This document shows positions 19,812 to 39,565 of a DNA stretch of 64,000 nucleotides, piece by piece. Both the position numbers and the translations under genes were made by a program. The notes beneath the pieces were generated by a model that was not told the origin of the DNA, made no database searches, and was given only the letters and a program-made list of their open reading frames with translations. The stretch is from Hyphomicrobium sp. GTDB lineage: Bacteria > Pseudomonadota > Alphaproteobacteria > Rhizobiales > Hyphomicrobiaceae. Within the stretch, counting starts at the first letter, position 1. Each line of letters opens with the position of its first letter. The stretch covers positions 7,021-71,020 of the forward strand of contig NZ_DATNBA010000133.1 in NCBI RefSeq assembly GCF_035572195.1. Reading direction: 5' to 3'.

Positions 19812-20459
19812 CTACCTTCTTTGATAAACAATAATAGAGAGGTACGTCGCCGGAAGTTTGGTCAGCGTTTCAGGGCCGTGAAATTCGGCAGAGTCGAACA
19901 GCATGCAGTCACCCGGCTCCATGCGATAACTGTTCTCTCCGTGAAGATAGTTGACTTCGCCGGTAAGCATATAAATGAGTTCGAGACCTTCATGCCGAAA
20001 CTGCGTGTAGGGCACGGCATCCTTGCTCAGGGTGATCAGGTAAGGCTCGAAGGCGATCGTTCCGCTGACAGACTGACCTAACTGTTGGTACTCATGCCCA
20101 ACCTTCGTGCCCCTCCGTTTGATGATGGGCCCCTTGCCCTTCTTTACAAACGAGCATCCCCGACGGCCTTCGAAAGACGCGAGAAGCATTGTCAGCGGCA
20201 AATTCAGAGCTGCAGCCAGTTGATGCAAAACGGAAAGCGACGCCGAAATTTGCCCGTTCTCAATTTTTGACACCATCGCGGTTGAAATTTCGGCGGCTGC
20301 GCCGAGCTCGGAAACCGTCAGTCCGGCAGCCTTTCTGAAATCGCGCACCTGGGCGCCAATGGCATCCTCGAGGGTGCGCGCACCGGCCTCCGGAGCCCCC
20401 GATCCGGTTGCCAGAGATTTTTGCGACGGTTGAGTTTGAGGTTTAGCCTTCTGAACCAT
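19812..20459 (-). CDS. XRE-family HTH plus cupin transcriptional regulator
   Basis: IGAQVRDFRKAAGLTVSELG...SKIENGQISASL HTH; C-terminal cupin (HEGLELIYMLTG...GDCMLFDS...HG); start moved to ATG 20459. Confidence 0.9.
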   Translation of the reverse strand: MVQKAKPQTQPSQKSLATGSGAPEAGARTLEDAIGAQVRDFRKAAGLTVSELGAAAEISTAMVSKIENGQISASLSVLHQLAAALNLPLTMLLASFEGRRGCSFVKKGKGPIIKRRGTKVGHEYQQLGQSVSGTIAFEPYLITLSKDAVPYTQFRHEGLELIYMLTGEVNYLHGENSYRMEPGDCMLFDSAEFHGPETLTKLPATYLSIIVYQRR

Positions 20460-20830
20460 TCGTCGCCCATCCCGATTTTTGATTGCAACCAACGCCTTGC
20501 CCCACGCTAACGGCACCTCCCGCTTACCGCATTCGCTCAACAGCCTGAATGCAAAACTTTCAAGGCTGGGGGGCGGGGCATGAGACGTCCTTGGATAAAA
20601 AATATTTCTTGACAATGGCAGTCATCAACAGCCGGTTTGCCAACGGGCCGGCACTCCAAGTCGCCGGCGGCAAGCGGCTGCGCAAGTGACTATAACACAT
20701 TGTTTATCGAGCTAAAGGTGCTTGATCAAATCGCCTTTCTTCCGCTCGCTTCTCATTCGATGGAGGATCGTCGGACACGTCAAAAACCCGGCTACTCAGC
20801 CGCAACATTTTTTCTTTAGAAGCAAATTTG

Positions 20831-20858
20831 TTGACTCTGACAAAATGTCGCGTATTTT
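20831..20858 (+). promoter_or_regulatory. Candidate sigma70 promoter of the small-membrane-protein/permease operon
   Basis: TTGACT-N16-TATTTT. Confidence 0.5.
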
Positions 20859-21000
20859 CTGCGACGGTCGCGAACCTCAGTCAAGTCACTGAGCGAAGGG
20901 CTCGTATCCAATCTGATGGTGTCTGACCGCAGATGGAACAATGACCCGCCAGAAGGTCATTTCGGAACGGGGTAAAAAAACGAGGAGACGGAGGATGGCA

Positions 21001-21297
21001 ATGCAGCAACGTCAGATTGATCCAAGAATAGCAGGCTTGTTTTCGGGCGACAGATTTTGGTCGTTGGCCGCACTCGGGCTGCTGTGGCTCCTATACGCAT
21101 TCGTGTTTTATGAAGTCTATCCGTACACGTCGACCCCCGAGGTCACTTGGGCGCTGGCGATTGGCGGCGGACTGGTTCTTCTCTTCAATACGGCCTCCAT
21201 TTTCGCCATGGTCGCGCATTTGAGTGAGGACCGGCATGAGATCTACGGCCTCGATTTGCACTATCTCGATCTTGCACAGAAGCAATCCAGCAAATAG
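21001..21297 (+). CDS. Small two-TM membrane protein, unknown function
   Basis: GGAGG RBS before ATG 21001; two hydrophobic helices; acidic/aromatic tail EDRHEIYGLDLHYLD. Confidence 0.8.
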   Translation: MQQRQIDPRIAGLFSGDRFWSLAALGLLWLLYAFVFYEVYPYTSTPEVTWALAIGGGLVLLFNTASIFAMVAHLSEDRHEIYGLDLHYLDLAQKQSSK

Positions 21298-21308
21298 CGG
21301 AGCGTCCC

Positions 21309-21695
21309 ATGGCAGATTCACACTATGAGCCGCCGACGCAATCCGCGATCGGCCAATTCTTCGATAGTCTCTTCCTTTTGGCTTTGGTTCTAATTGCCCT
21401 CTTTGCGCCGCTCTACTTGGGTTTGGCCGGCGGCGGTAAGACGGAACTCGCCGTTGCAGACAAGACGACCTGGATAGGCCTGGGTCAGAATGCTGTGCAA
21501 CAGGGTCAGTGGGAAAAGCTCGGGTTCACTCCCGAGACCGCCGCAAGCATGATCACATCGCGGTTTGATTACAGCTTCAGCGTCATTGAACTCGTCATCA
21601 CAGCGCTCGTCGTTGTCGGCTACTTCGTACTCCTCTTTCGATTTTCGAAAACTGAGTACGCCGACGTCATATCTGAACGCTTCGGCAAGAAGTGA
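21309..21695 (+). CDS. Small two-TM membrane protein with central soluble loop
   Basis: GGAG RBS; two hydrophobic helices flanking a ~50-aa loop; 11-nt gap from previous gene. Confidence 0.8.
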   Translation: MADSHYEPPTQSAIGQFFDSLFLLALVLIALFAPLYLGLAGGGKTELAVADKTTWIGLGQNAVQQGQWEKLGFTPETAASMITSRFDYSFSVIELVITALVVVGYFVLLFRFSKTEYADVISERFGKK

Positions 21696-21704
21696 GGCAC
21701 GGGA

Positions 21705-21890
21705 ATGAACAATTTTCAAATGCTCGAATACGCCGCGTGGGGCATATCTGTGCTTCTCGGCCTCTACATGCTGATCGATTTGATCAAGACAAATCGTGCT
21801 TATTCGGAAGACGTTCTCACGTCTTCGAAAGAAGGTGAGATCGAGGAGGCGCTCGTCATCGATCCAGACCACCAGGGGGGACATCGATGA
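21705..21890 (+). CDS. 61-aa single-TM protein with acidic tail
   Basis: One hydrophobic helix; stop overlaps the permease start (ATGA). Confidence 0.78.
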   Translation: MNNFQMLEYAAWGISVLLGLYMLIDLIKTNRAYSEDVLTSSKEGEIEEALVIDPDHQGGHR

Positions 21891-23272
21891 GCCAGACAAC
21901 AGTCGTACACGGCGAGAAGATCTCGCTACTCCGCGTCCTTGGTCCCGCTCACATCTGGGCCCTCGGTGTCGGTATCGTTCTCGTCGGCGAATACATGGGT
22001 TGGAATTTCGCGGTCGGAAAGGGCGGTGCAATAGCGGCCCTTATTGCCTGCTGGTTCGCAGGTCTTCTCTACACGTGCGTCGCCATGATCGATTCCGAGG
22101 TCACGTCGACGGTCGCCGCGGCAGGCGGCCAATATGCCCAGGCCAAACACATCGTTGGCCCGGTCATGGCCTTCAATGTCGGTCTGTATCTTGTGTTTGC
22201 CTACACCATGCTCGAAGCGGCCAACGCCATCACGCTTGGCTACCTTGTGCAAACAGTGGGCAGCATGGCGGGCTTTGAGAATGTCCATGACAAGCCATTC
22301 ATCGTGCTCACGATCATGTTCTTGGCATGGCTTAACTACCGGGGCGTCTACGCGACGTTGACGTTCAACCTCGTCCTCACGGCAATTGCATTTGTCGCCA
22401 TCATAATTTTGTTCGCATGGGTGAGGCCATGGTCGACGGAAATGCTCAAGCACAGCGACCTTCTAAACGGACTGCCGTATGGCTTCATCGGCGTCATAGC
22501 CTCGCTGCACTTCGGTCTTTGGTACTACCTCGGCATAGAGGGTACGTGCCAAGCGGCCGAAGAAGTGCGGTCTCCCGCTAGGTCTCTGCCGCTCGGCACG
22601 ATGTCAGGCATCATCACGCTGCTTCTGGCGGCCACAATGACTTGGTACGTTTGCACCGGGTTGATGCCGTGGGAATATCTCGGGCAGGCGATTACGCCAT
22701 TGTTTGATGCCGCTCGACTGACTGACTCGAAGCTGTTGATGATCCTCCTGTTTGTCGGCACCATGTTCTCAACGATGGCGTCGGCCAACGGCTGCATCAA
22801 CGATGCCTCCCGGGCATGGTTCTCGATGGGGCGCGACCGGTATCTCCCGACTTGGTTCGGTGCTGTTCATCCAAAAAACAGAACGCCGTTCCGGTCGATC
22901 GTGTTCCTTGTTCCTGTGGCGCTGATATTCGCGTACTTCGCACCACTCGATCAGGTCATCACGTTCTCGATCCTGTCGGGCCTGCTCGGCTACACGTACA
23001 TGTCCTTCAATGTGATCATGTTCCGTAAGAAGTGGCCGCTTGATAGGATCAAACGCGGGTATATTCATCCGTTCCACCCGCTGCCGGCTCTCGTGCTGCT
23101 CCTTCTCTGCTCGGTCACGTACTTTGCCGTGTTCCTGGGCTACGGAACGCAGCTCGTCGCGATGATGTTGTTCTTTGCGGTCGCCTCAATATGGTTCCAC
23201 TTCCATCGCTACCGCTTCGTTCGCCGTGGCGATCAGTTCTCGATGCAGTGGCCTCGCCCTGTGGGCTACTGA
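21887..23272 (+). CDS. APC-superfamily permease, ethanolamine permease (Eat)-like; candidate methylamine transporter
   Basis: LGPAHIWALGVGIVLVGEYMGWNF resembles the Eat N-terminus; GIEG...AEEV..P motif; about 12 hydrophobic segments. Confidence 0.85.
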   Translation: MSQTTVVHGEKISLLRVLGPAHIWALGVGIVLVGEYMGWNFAVGKGGAIAALIACWFAGLLYTCVAMIDSEVTSTVAAAGGQYAQAKHIVGPVMAFNVGLYLVFAYTMLEAANAITLGYLVQTVGSMAGFENVHDKPFIVLTIMFLAWLNYRGVYATLTFNLVLTAIAFVAIIILFAWVRPWSTEMLKHSDLLNGLPYGFIGVIASLHFGLWYYLGIEGTCQAAEEVRSPARSLPLGTMSGIITLLLAATMTWYVCTGLMPWEYLGQAITPLFDAARLTDSKLLMILLFVGTMFSTMASANGCINDASRAWFSMGRDRYLPTWFGAVHPKNRTPFRSIVFLVPVALIFAYFAPLDQVITFSILSGLLGYTYMSFNVIMFRKKWPLDRIKRGYIHPFHPLPALVLLLLCSVTYFAVFLGYGTQLVAMMLFFAVASIWFHFHRYRFVRRGDQFSMQWPRPVGY

Positions 23273-23282
23273 GTTCAAAATT

Positions 23283-23318
23283 CGAAGCGGCGGGACTCGC
23301 GTCCCGCCGCTTCGTTTT
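23283..23318 (+). terminator. Rho-independent terminator of the permease operon
   Basis: Perfect 14-bp stem CGAAGCGGCGGGAC-TCGC-GTCCCGCCGCTTCG plus TTTT. Confidence 0.85.
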
Positions 23319-23385: not shown

Positions 23386-24066
23386 TTGCTATCGATCGCC
23401 TCGATTTTTGTAGGGGTGCTGGGCTTAGCCCTCATCGCGTTCATGGGCATGCGGGACCATGCCAAACTTCGAGAAAAGCGACGCGATCTCCTCGATCAAA
23501 GCGCCGGGTTGCTCGAACGGAGCAGCATCAATCATTGCGGCGATGGATTTCCCAACCTCGAGGGCCGTCACCTGGGCCGCTACGTTCGTGCCGAACTCAT
23601 TCCGGACACGATGACGATCAAGCGGTTGCCGCAACTCTGGCTCTCCTTAAGCCGGATCGAGCCCCGGCCTGACAATTCCGAATTTGCCGTCCTTGTGCGG
23701 CCATCAGGAACGGAATTCTATTCACTGACGACGGGCTACGAACATCGGTTGGAGCCACCGGCGGGACTACCTGCTGAAATCCTGGTACGGGGTAACAGCC
23801 CGTCTGCGCAGCGACATCTCGATCGCGTCGGCCCGATCATCGGAAAAATTCTCGCCGATCCCAAAGTAAAGGAAGTCGGTGTCACGAAAAAAGGCCTGCG
23901 CCTCGTTTGGCAAGCCAGCGAAGGTCGCCGCGGCGAGCACTTGATTTTGCGCCAGTGCGTATTCGACGATGCGCGCGTGACTCGTTCGGACTTTGCGAGA
24001 CTTCTCGCCTATCTCGATGAGTTGAGCCTCGCCCTCACCGGCTCGGCTGAGGCTCCTGCCGCATGA
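23386..24066 (+). CDS. N-terminally anchored hypothetical protein
   Basis: 226-aa ORF, single N-terminal hydrophobic helix, TTG start, ATGA overlap with next gene. Confidence 0.75.
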   Translation: MLSIASIFVGVLGLALIAFMGMRDHAKLREKRRDLLDQSAGLLERSSINHCGDGFPNLEGRHLGRYVRAELIPDTMTIKRLPQLWLSLSRIEPRPDNSEFAVLVRPSGTEFYSLTTGYEHRLEPPAGLPAEILVRGNSPSAQRHLDRVGPIIGKILADPKVKEVGVTKKGLRLVWQASEGRRGEHLILRQCVFDDARVTRSDFARLLAYLDELSLALTGSAEAPAA

Positions 24067-24356
24067 GCAACTCCAATGACCGGCCGCCGATCAATCCCTA
24101 CGTCGTTCTCGTGTTGGCAATTTTGTTTCCGGGCGCTGGCCATGTTGCGGTAGGGCAGCCGCAGAGAGGCTTGGGCTTCGCATTCTTCACCCTGCTTCTT
24201 GCTCTTGTGACCTGGTATACGACCACGCCCGAGCGCTCGTTCATCGGGCGCGCTGCCGGCGGCCTGTTCGTCTGGGCATTGTCGATCCCCGATGCCTACA
24301 AGCTCGCCAGAATCCAGTACACCGCCTGGATGAGGCGCCATCCGTCCAATCGATGA
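24063..24356 (+). CDS. Small membrane protein with PGAGH motif
   Basis: LAILFPGAGHVAVGQ..RG and SIPDAY motifs; three hydrophobic segments. Confidence 0.75.
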   Translation: MSNSNDRPPINPYVVLVLAILFPGAGHVAVGQPQRGLGFAFFTLLLALVTWYTTTPERSFIGRAAGGLFVWALSIPDAYKLARIQYTAWMRRHPSNR

Positions 24357-37783: not shown

Positions 37784-39565
37784 TCATGCCGGAAGCGCGA
37801 AAAACCAGTTCGCAACGAGAACCACGACAATACCGGCAGCAAGTGTGAGATAGGGAAGGATGCCGGCCTTGCGCTGTTGCAGATCGTTAGCCGTCAGGTT
37901 CAAATCCTCAAGCATGTGGGCGGGAAACTTGCCCTTGTCCTGGACGTAGTGCCGGAACAGAAACACCGGGATGATGAGGGACGCAGCGATCGCGCCGGCC
38001 CACAACGCCATCGGGTTCCAGACCTTGGCTCCAGCACCCATGAAGGCGGCGTTGACGAACGCAAACATGGTGCCCAAGACCAACAGAATGGTAGGCGCTC
38101 GCCACGGTCTCTGGATGTGCCCATTGTCGATACGATGGATCCAGCCGGAGTTCAGGTTGAGGAAGTTGAAGATGATGTAGCAGCAGTTGGAAACCGCCAG
38201 AATGAAGAAGAAGCTGGTAGCGTCCGCGGCTGCGATCGCGAGAAGGCCCAGGTTGAATACCAGGTCCGTCCACATTGCTCTCGTCGGAGCGCCGTGCTCG
38301 TTCGCATGATCAAGATACCGAGGCAGCCAGCCGTCGACGGAACCCTGATAAAGCGTGCGAGACGATCCGGCCATCGCCGTCATGATCGACAGCATCAATG
38401 CCAGGATCATCAACATCACCATGATGTTGACCACAAAGCCCGAACCGCCGACCATCGTAGCCATCGCATTTGCGACGCCGGAGCCATCGACGATAGGCGT
38501 TGCCAGCATGCCGTTGAGGCCGAGGACGCCTTGGAACGTGAATGGCACCAAGGTGTAAAGCAACACGCACAAAAGGCCCGAGAAGAAGATGGCTTTGAAC
38601 GTGTCGGTCTTCGGATTCTTGAACTCGCTTGTGTAGCAAATGGCGGTTTCGAAAGCGTAGGTCGACCACGCCGCGATAAACATTCCGCCGAGAACCAGCG
38701 TCCAGCCGCCGACGTTCCACTCTCCCATCTCAGGAGCGTATGCGGCCTTCAGCGGAACCAACGGCGAATAGTTATCCCAATTGATCTGTCCAGTGAGGAT
38801 GGGAACCACACCGACGATCAACATCGGTATGATGACCAGCAGTCCGATATATTTCTGTACGCTGGCCGTGCCGAGGATGCCGCGATGCTGGATGGCGAAC
38901 GTGATCAGCATGAGCACCGCGCCGATAAAGAACACCCAATTCAGAGAGAAGGTGACCGGGCCGAGCGAATGCGTGAATAGAGTCCAATTGCGGAACGCCG
39001 GAGTCAGAGCTGCAACTCCGTCCTGAGCCAACAACGCGCTGACGCCTTCCGTTGCCGTATGGCCGGCGTTCGCCGCAAGCCATTCAGCAATGCGCGGACT
39101 ATCGAGCGGGATCGCACTCGCATGAGCTTGCACCCACGCCAATACATCCGGAGAGTCGGCCGCAGGAATCGGGCCGAGTGCATTTAAGATGTAAGCAGCG
39201 GCAATCGAACACCCGAGAGACAAGACCGGGGACCAGGCCAGCCAGTTGCACCACACCGATAGTGGCGCAATCAATTTGGAGTAACGCACCCAAGCAGCCG
39301 CGCCATAGATTGAAGCGCCGCCCGATTTATTTGGAAAGAGGCCTGCTATCTCGGCATAGGTGAAAGATTGGATGAAGCCCATGACCATGGACACCGCCCA
39401 AACAAGAAAGGCTACCTTTCCCGTCGTACCGGCAATGCCGCCGATTGAAAACAAAACGAGGGCCGGCACACCGCTGGCCACCCAAAAAGCACCCTTCCAG
39501 TCAATTGATCGCACTAATTCGCCGGACGATGATCGTCCCGACAATATTTGTGTTTCGACCGCCAT
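37784..39565 (-). CDS. APC-family permease, TmoP-like (methylated amine or amine oxide uptake)
   Basis: IDWKGAFWVASGVPALVLFSIG, EIAGLFPNKSGGAS, AFETAICYTSEF; immediately upstream of dmmA as tmoP is in Methylocella. Orthology not verified. Confidence 0.78.
   Translation of the reverse strand: MAVETQILSGRSSSGELVRSIDWKGAFWVASGVPALVLFSIGGIAGTTGKVAFLVWAVSMVMGFIQSFTYAEIAGLFPNKSGGASIYGAAAWVRYSKLIAPLSVWCNWLAWSPVLSLGCSIAAAYILNALGPIPAADSPDVLAWVQAHASAIPLDSPRIAEWLAANAGHTATEGVSALLAQDGVAALTPAFRNWTLFTHSLGPVTFSLNWVFFIGAVLMLITFAIQHRGILGTASVQKYIGLLVIIPMLIVGVVPILTGQINWDNYSPLVPLKAAYAPEMGEWNVGGWTLVLGGMFIAAWSTYAFETAICYTSEFKNPKTDTFKAIFFSGLLCVLLYTLVPFTFQGVLGLNGMLATPIVDGSGVANAMATMVGGSGFVVNIMVMLMILALMLSIMTAMAGSSRTLYQGSVDGWLPRYLDHANEHGAPTRAMWTDLVFNLGLLAIAAADATSFFFILAVSNCCYIIFNFLNLNSGWIHRIDNGHIQRPWRAPTILLVLGTMFAFVNAAFMGAGAKVWNPMALWAGAIAASLIIPVFLFRHYVQDKGKFPAHMLEDLNLTANDLQQRKAGILPYLTLAAGIVVVLVANWFFALPA

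Follow-up and report, generated by a model that had tools for sequence, protein, structure and literature searches.

Methylated amines are important sources of carbon and nitrogen in both soils and oceans. The genetic basis of methylamine uptake in bacteria with the N-methylglutamate pathway is, to our knowledge, not settled; uptake is usually assigned to Amt-type channels, and earlier work on it indicated a distinct system that is inducible. Decades ago, inducible uptake specific for methylamine and different from ammonium transport was reportedly measured in Hyphomicrobium X and in "Pseudomonas sp. MA" (Aminobacter). The present analysis concerns a stretch of 64,000 nucleotides from a Hyphomicrobium sp. 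assembly (GCF_035572195.1, contig NZ_DATNBA010000133.1, positions 7,021 to 71,020; hereafter the window), in which the gene for a permease of the amino acid-polyamine-organocation (APC) superfamily is accompanied by genes for small membrane proteins. We found that this permease gene belongs to a cassette of six genes, here called A to F, that travels as a fixed set across two phyla and is repeatedly linked to genes for methylamine metabolism, and we propose with moderate confidence that it encodes a dedicated methylamine uptake unit.

A six-gene cassette with a fixed order in two phyla

In the window the cassette lies on the plus strand and consists of A (20995 or 21001..21297, 100 or 98 amino acids depending on the start), B (21309..21695, 128 amino acids), C (21705..21890, 61 amino acids), D (21887..23272, 461 amino acids, the APC-superfamily permease), E (23386..24066, 226 amino acids with a TTG start, predicted to be membrane-anchored) and F (24063..24356, 97 amino acids, a predicted three-helix membrane protein). 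A preliminary description of this DNA had proposed a four-component methylamine transporter made of A to D. These four open reading frames (ORFs), their sizes, the gaps of 11 nt between A and B and 9 nt between B and C, and the ATGA overlap of the C stop with the D start were confirmed from the sequence. Also confirmed was their location between mgs/gmaS and mgd, with gmaS, mgsC, mgsB, mgsA and an XRE/cupin regulator gene to the left of A, all on the minus strand, and a LysR regulator gene and the four genes mgdABCD to the right of the cassette. The number of components had to be revised: there are six conserved genes, E and F following a hairpin that lies behind D. The E stop and the F start again share an ATGA overlap, and each of the ORFs A to D has a purine-rich ribosome-binding site at its start. 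For gene A the start at 21001 (98 amino acids) is favored because a GGAGG at 20990-20994 stands 6 nt 5' of this ATG.

To define the distribution of the cassette, one genome per species was scanned, which gave at least 564 stretches encoding a relative of D, the 80 best of which were fetched. Iterated hidden Markov model (HMM) searches covered all six-frame ORFs of 87 proteobacterial loci, with the proviso that related genomes in these counts are not independent samples. Of the 87 loci, the 85 that were uncut by a contig end all have the order A>B>C>D>E>F, as do three further Sinorhizobium loci and two actinobacterial genomes, amounting to 90 of 90 loci with adequate flanks. Barring one record with evident indel errors, the frames were intact in all 90 complete loci. 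Genera carrying the cassette include Hyphomicrobium, Labrys, Aminobacter, Sinorhizobium, Mesorhizobium, Paracoccus, Paraburkholderia, Pseudonocardia and Actinomycetospora. When a plasmid collection was searched by tblastn, B retrieved 22 records and D retrieved exactly the same 22, which came from Aminobacter, Sinorhizobium, Paracoccus, Pararhizobium, Rhizobium, Pseudohalocynthiibacter and Paraburkholderia. In annotated plasmid examples three small hypothetical genes are located 5' of the permease gene and hypothetical genes of ~220-250 and ~90 amino acids 3' of it, and BLASTP showed these neighbors to be homologues of the cassette genes.

A divergent branch of the B family is that of the two actinobacterial genera, Pseudonocardia and Actinomycetospora. 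Their A to F products measure 102/142/55/483/197/93 and 98/154/60/487/225/91 amino acids, with five or all six genes joined by 4-nt overlaps, and all six proteins were detected by the proteobacterial HMMs with E-values from 1e-12 to 1e-218. Identity between the window's proteins and the actinobacterial ones was highest for D (60-61%) and F (49-55%), followed by E (35%), and was lower for A (29-32%), B (31-32%) and C (23-28%). The preliminary description had made its proposal depend on the small genes accompanying the permease in other genomes; they did so in every one of the 90 loci, in both phyla, and the five partners exist solely alongside the permease subfamily to which D belongs.

Recurrent linkage to methylamine genes

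The cassette is repeatedly linked to methylamine genes. At least two of gmaS, mgs and mgd were present within the fetched flanks of 44 of the 87 loci, and of 37 of the 68 loci for which both flanks reached 5 kb or more. This linkage recurs in unrelated lineages and in at least four arrangements: the cassette is divergent from mgsABC-gmaS in this window, Paracoccus and Rhodobacter; it is placed between mgdDCBA and mgsABC-gmaS in many Hyphomicrobium; it comes after mgdABCD in Mesorhizobium alhagi; and it comes before gmaS-mgs in Sinorhizobium, where dmm-like genes stand on its other side. Both actinobacterial loci are flanked by gmaS and mgsABC, and one of them also by mgdABCD.

Other neighborhoods were observed as well. 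In Paraburkholderia caribensis MBA4 (L023:12616-15494), the cassette is followed by genes for a GcvT-type aminomethyltransferase and for a 546-amino-acid AA_permease_2 protein that is TmoP-like, neighbors which imply a link to methylated-amine genes in a betaproteobacterium too. Homogentisate genes are found a few kb from the cassette on Aminobacter aminovorans pAA01 (L022:12580-17890) and on a 62-kb Pseudohalocynthiibacter plasmid (L024:14179-19837); those seen were hmgA and a fumarylacetoacetate hydrolase gene, plus hppD and maiA in Aminobacter.

The permease

By its sequence, D is a divergent member of the APC superfamily, matching Pfam AA_permease (PF00324) with 108.5 bits over residues 32-424 (cut-off 24.6) and AA_permease_2 (PF13520) with 98.1 bits (cut-off 27). 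The preliminary description had called it an Eat-like permease, and the ethanolamine permease model of NCBIfam, TIGR00908, is indeed the nearest named family, residues 15-438 of D aligning with profile positions 6-427 of 442. The score of 178.3 bits is far below the equivalog cut-off of 381.75, so that D falls outside the Eat equivalog. Among the cassette flanks that were annotated or scanned, none showed eut genes; the neighbors there are gmaS, mgs, mgd, dmm and regulator genes. D and its homologues form a discrete, highly conserved subfamily with 70-78% identity over Alpha- and Betaproteobacteria, while the next APC paralogues share <30% identity with D. The closest solved structure, found by a PDB sequence search, is that of GkApcT (5OQT/6F34, E 2.5e-22), and the relatives of D in the PDB include APC light chains that need a partner, e.g. 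LAT1 and b0,+AT.

Three distant APC paralogues of D are encoded in the window's genome, and the one inspected has no neighbors resembling A, B, C, E or F. The window itself contains a second APC permease gene (37784-39565, minus strand; 593 amino acids, AA_permease_2 256 bits), which heads dmm-like genes, is TmoP-like, has no small partner genes and encodes a protein without significant similarity to D. We therefore rejected the identification of D as TmoP, since the TmoP-like permease is a separate gene in the window with a BLASTP E-value of 0.099 against D. In Hyphomicrobium sulfonivorans S1 (L056:6556-9359) and Hyphomicrobium sp. D-2 (L057:6173-9359), D alone is tandemly duplicated (A-B-C-D1-D2-E-F); D1 and D2 share 93% identity, and each partner gene is present once.

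The small proteins A, B and C

Hydropathy and conservation analysis indicated that A has two transmembrane (TM) helices and carries the conserved motif E-D-x-x-x-I-Y-G-L-D in its C-terminal part, and that B has two TM helices around a ~55-amino-acid loop, with conserved motifs at its N terminus (Y-x-P-P-x-Q-S-x-x-G-Q) and its C terminus (S-x-x-E-Y-x-x-V-I-x-E-R-F-G). C is predicted to have one TM helix followed by a conserved acidic tail, S-S-x-E-G-E. Profile searches against Pfam, NCBIfam and PDB sequences gave no match for A, B, C or E, and no consistent Pfam match was found among 69 members of the B family; the Pfam and NCBIfam searches also recognized no signaling domain in A, B, C, E or F. 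The B family is small: a profile search of 1.84 billion representative proteins returned 224 clusters, which, barring a few longer ones, all have ~125-170 amino acids or are fragments of proteins of that size. Each of A, B, C, E and F is single-copy in the window's genome, located in the cassette alone.

These small ORFs are real genes. Every related locus holds intact homologues of them, and their ratio of nonsynonymous to synonymous substitution (dN/dS) is 0.25-0.42. The corresponding ratio for D is 0.14, and dS is partly saturated in these comparisons.

Some public names given to B homologues (P0009, P0037, P0280 and P0288), namely "FtsW", "YphA (DoxX/SURF4)" and "cytochrome oxidase subunit 3", had no support from any family search. 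The longer B matches among the representatives proved to be frameshifted gene calls running into C and D. An apparent natural fusion of B, C and D in S. meliloti Ak57 was considered as evidence of interaction and rejected, since comparison with three other Sinorhizobium loci traced it to indel errors. In this locus (L026, CP090106.1) B and C lack stop codons through indels that the sister strains do not have; the record is labeled "pSymB" yet is chromosome-sized (3.7 Mb), which looks like an assembly or labeling problem.

Proteins E and F

E consists of an N-terminal TM helix, a basic stretch and a ~190-amino-acid alpha/beta domain, which is probably cytoplasmic since the basic stretch follows the TM helix (positive-inside rule). 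An AlphaFold2 model built from 78 sequences (pLDDT 91, predicted TM-score (pTM) 0.86) likewise shows an N-terminal helix and then a sheet-and-helix domain. Comparison of this model with the PDB by Foldseek gave four matches with probabilities of 0.99-1.00, TM-scores of 0.41-0.51 and E-values of 1.4e-3 to 5.9e-3. The three top-ranked matches are one chain each of the ribosome-multipass-translocon entries 7TM3, 9I78 and 6W6L, chains that the search output does not name and that we take to be CCDC47. The fourth is TtfA (6T84; probability 0.99, target-normalized TM-score 0.51). No profile match to E was found among PDB sequences or in Pfam. The modeled fold of E may resemble that of TtfA, a likeness at the level of the fold only. 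In Pseudonocardia acaciae the called E (L110:11041-11634, 197 amino acids) lacks the N-terminal membrane helix that the Actinomycetospora E and every proteobacterial E possess; its start codon has probably been called too far downstream.

The structural model of F (pLDDT 92) has three helices, the first of which is kinked at P-G-x-G-H, and gave no significant structural match in the PDB, the best probability being 0.23. The idea that E and F are counterparts of the CCDC47-Asterix pair was dropped, as this result left F unsupported. F matches DUF6677 (PF20382) with 18.6 bits, below the gathering threshold of 24.3; such sub-threshold matches occur in 69 of 79 F members and are confined to the N-terminal helix with the P-G-x-G-H motif.

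A candidate methylamine uptake unit

The genomic and sequence data make it reasonably likely, in our judgment, that A to F together make up a dedicated unit for methylamine uptake, with D as the carrier and with five partners that assemble, stabilize or regulate it. The six genes would act as one functional unit feeding substrate to the N-methylglutamate pathway. D would be an APC carrier of the LeuT fold and would bring methylamine, in the form of methylammonium, into the cytoplasm for conversion by GmaS, MgsABC and MgdABCD. The small integral membrane proteins A, B and C would be partners of D, produced along with it from a single, tightly coupled message; E would contribute a membrane-anchored cytoplasmic domain with a TtfA-like fold and would form, together with F, a second translationally coupled pair that helps the assembly, stability or control of the carrier. 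The substrate, the direction of transport and the physical association of the partners with D are those parts of the scheme that we infer. Beyond the gene linkage, the proposal is favored by the nature of D, an APC member nearest to the ethanolamine permease and hence to a carrier of a carboxylate-free amine. Hyphomicrobium and Aminobacter, the two genera of the early uptake measurements, both carry the cassette.

Several observations weigh against this proposal. About half of the loci are without methylamine genes within 8 kb, a count limited to the flanks, and the two plasmid loci of Aminobacter (pAA01) and Pseudohalocynthiibacter are near homogentisate genes, not methylamine genes. APC carriers normally function as single polypeptides. 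The structural matches of E are moderate (TM-scores 0.41-0.51) and have no sequence-level support. Finally, a strong hairpin parts D from E and F, here and in many lineages, so that E and F may be expressed differently or separately.

A more far-reaching version of the uptake unit would make D the first bacterial APC carrier to work solely as a hetero-oligomer, with A, B and C as obligate subunits and with E and F as a TtfA/CCDC47-like chaperone or accessory pair. We put this forward tentatively, as possible rather than probable. An APC carrier that is never found without five small proteins of no known family would be a new transporter architecture, and, if the hetero-oligomer were real, transporter accessory factors of the TtfA kind would be widespread outside mycobacteria.

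In one alternative explanation, the cassette may be functional and serve another substrate or direction, be it the uptake of dimethylamine, trimethylamine or ethanolamine, or the export or retrieval of ammonium, gamma-glutamylmethylamide or N-methylglutamate. Such a role would agree with the ethanolamine permease being the nearest named family of D, with the habit of APC carriers to move amino acids, which both pathway intermediates are, with the place of the Sinorhizobium cassette between dmm-like genes and gmaS-mgs, with the GcvT-like gene and TmoP-like permease gene adjoining the Paraburkholderia cassette, and with the half of the loci that have no adjacent N-methylglutamate pathway genes. 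We nevertheless regard it as unlikely, considering that the commonest and most varied linkage, in both phyla, is to gmaS, mgs and mgd, which encode monomethylamine enzymes, that the dmm operon of the window is headed by its own TmoP-like permease, unrelated to D, and that the pathway intermediates are produced and consumed inside the cell.

Alternatively, the five small proteins could be a separate membrane device, such as an amine sensor or relay to the adjacent regulator, merely co-regulated with the permease. A regulator gene does adjoin A in many loci (of the XRE/cupin type or, in actinobacteria, GntR/FCD), conserved motifs or domains that are probably cytoplasmic occur in each of A, B, C and E, the hairpin sets D apart from E and F, and in the two Hyphomicrobium genomes with tandem copies only D was duplicated, not its partners. 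We give this explanation little credence: the partners never occur without the permease subfamily of D and their order is never altered, the overlaps of C with D and of E with F, extended to nearly all genes in actinobacteria, are typical of subunits made in a fixed ratio, and none of the five proteins has a recognizable signaling domain. A further alternative, that the small ORFs are chance frames or annotation noise beside an ordinary single-polypeptide permease, draws on their being short, hydrophobic and unmatched by any family, and on the frequent lack of annotation of genes the size of C, B and C being missing from the Sinorhizobium feature table, for example. It is refuted by the conservation data and has next to no probability left: the proteins are conserved across phyla (HMM E-values 1e-12 to 1e-51), dN/dS is <0.45, each ORF has a ribosome-binding site, and the frames are intact in the 90 complete loci save the one indel-error record.

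Comparison with known systems

Among characterized carriers, Eat (TIGR00908) is like D in its APC fold, with an alignment of near-full length, and it carries a small primary amine that has no carboxylate; D differs in always being accompanied by five partner genes and in being linked to methylamine genes, not eut genes. GkApcT (5OQT, 6F34), a bacterial homologue of cationic amino acid transporters and the closest solved structure by sequence, transports amino acids. It was reportedly crystallized with a small single-helix membrane protein, MgtS, bound to it, which would mean that an APC carrier from bacteria is able to bind a partner of this kind; this MgtS is said to have come from the expression host and to have no genetic linkage to the carrier. 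The heteromeric amino acid transporters (LAT1-4F2hc, b0,+AT-rBAT and xCT-4F2hc) have APC light chains that are sequence relatives of D and need a single-pass partner for stability and trafficking. Unlike the cassette they are eukaryotic, and instead of five small proteins they have one large disulfide-linked glycoprotein partner, which is not homologous to any of the five.

Two further systems resemble the cassette in having accessory proteins. TtfA is an accessory factor in a complex with the mycobacterial mycolic-acid transporter MmpL3, a secondary transporter, and is required for MmpL3 function (PMC6593404). It differs from E in having no detectable sequence similarity to it, and its transporter belongs to the resistance-nodulation-division (RND) superfamily. 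ActP-YjcH shares with the cassette a secondary carrier encoded right after a small membrane protein in one operon; it has a single partner of a known family (DUF485), to which Pfam searches found no similarity in A, B or C, and its carrier is of another family, the sodium:solute symporters.

As functional analogues of the cassette, AmtB/Mep and TmoP can be compared. Methylammonium is transported by Amt proteins as an analogue of ammonium; their fold is unrelated to that of D. TmoP is an APC permease found in methylated-amine clusters. In some N-methylglutamate pathway clusters, amt genes are annotated as the methylamine transporter (PMC8292978). Full-text literature searches found no description or characterization of the cassette; a paper on methylotrophy in Paracoccus aminophilus describes the neighboring mgsABC-gmaS and mgd operons and, in the portions of its text that were available, does not describe the cassette genes. 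With a relative of D encoded in at least 564 stretches of the one-genome-per-species collection, the cassette is a concrete and widely distributed candidate for methylamine uptake, and a marker gene for the uptake of methylated amines would be useful.

Control elements of the cassette

The preliminary description had given the operon its own promoter and a 14-bp terminator. A promoter-like site and the hairpin were both found, and the second was misplaced in function, as it lies inside the conserved unit and not at its end. The promoter-like site, TTGACT-16-TATTTT (20831..20858, plus strand), was detected by a consensus scan in the intergenic region common to A and the divergent XRE-mgsABC-gmaS genes. 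One promoter-like match in the leader region is no more than shuffled sequence yields, so that stronger evidence for a promoter comes from the conservation of the -35 block: GAAGCAAATTTGTTGACT (20819-20836), which holds the -35 element, is the sole long identical stretch between this leader and the otherwise diverged leader of the closest relative, L027. The XRE-HTH/cupin regulator gene (19812..20615, minus strand), which is divergent from A and heads the mgsABC-gmaS genes, probably encodes the regulator of this shared region, through which the cassette and the pathway genes may be co-expressed. An XRE-type gene is divergent from A in many loci, and a GntR/FCD regulator gene occupies the same position in the actinobacterial loci. 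A structured leader or riboswitch 5' of A was considered and is unsupported, the leader having no Rfam match and a folding z-score of -0.64.

The hairpin directly 3' of D (23283..23314, plus strand) has 14 pairs, 11 of them GC, followed by a T-run. Strong GC-rich stem-loops were present after D in most of the 10 examined loci with a D-E gap of >12 nt, including those of Hyphomicrobium, Aestuariivirga, Paracoccus onubensis and Aminobacter, in which E-F starts 60-130 nt later; their sequence is not conserved between loci. The hairpin is absent from loci in which E directly adjoins D, among them those of Labrys, Tianweitania, P. aminophilus and the actinobacteria. It is probably a partial terminator or a stabilizer of the 3' end, either of which would put the level of E and F below that of A to D. 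The region from 23210 to 23318 on the plus strand, spanning the 3' end of D and the hairpin, has the only Rfam match obtained, a sub-threshold one to the alphaproteobacterial small RNA ar7 (30.4 bits against a gathering score of 60, E 0.0024), which is probably driven by the hairpin.

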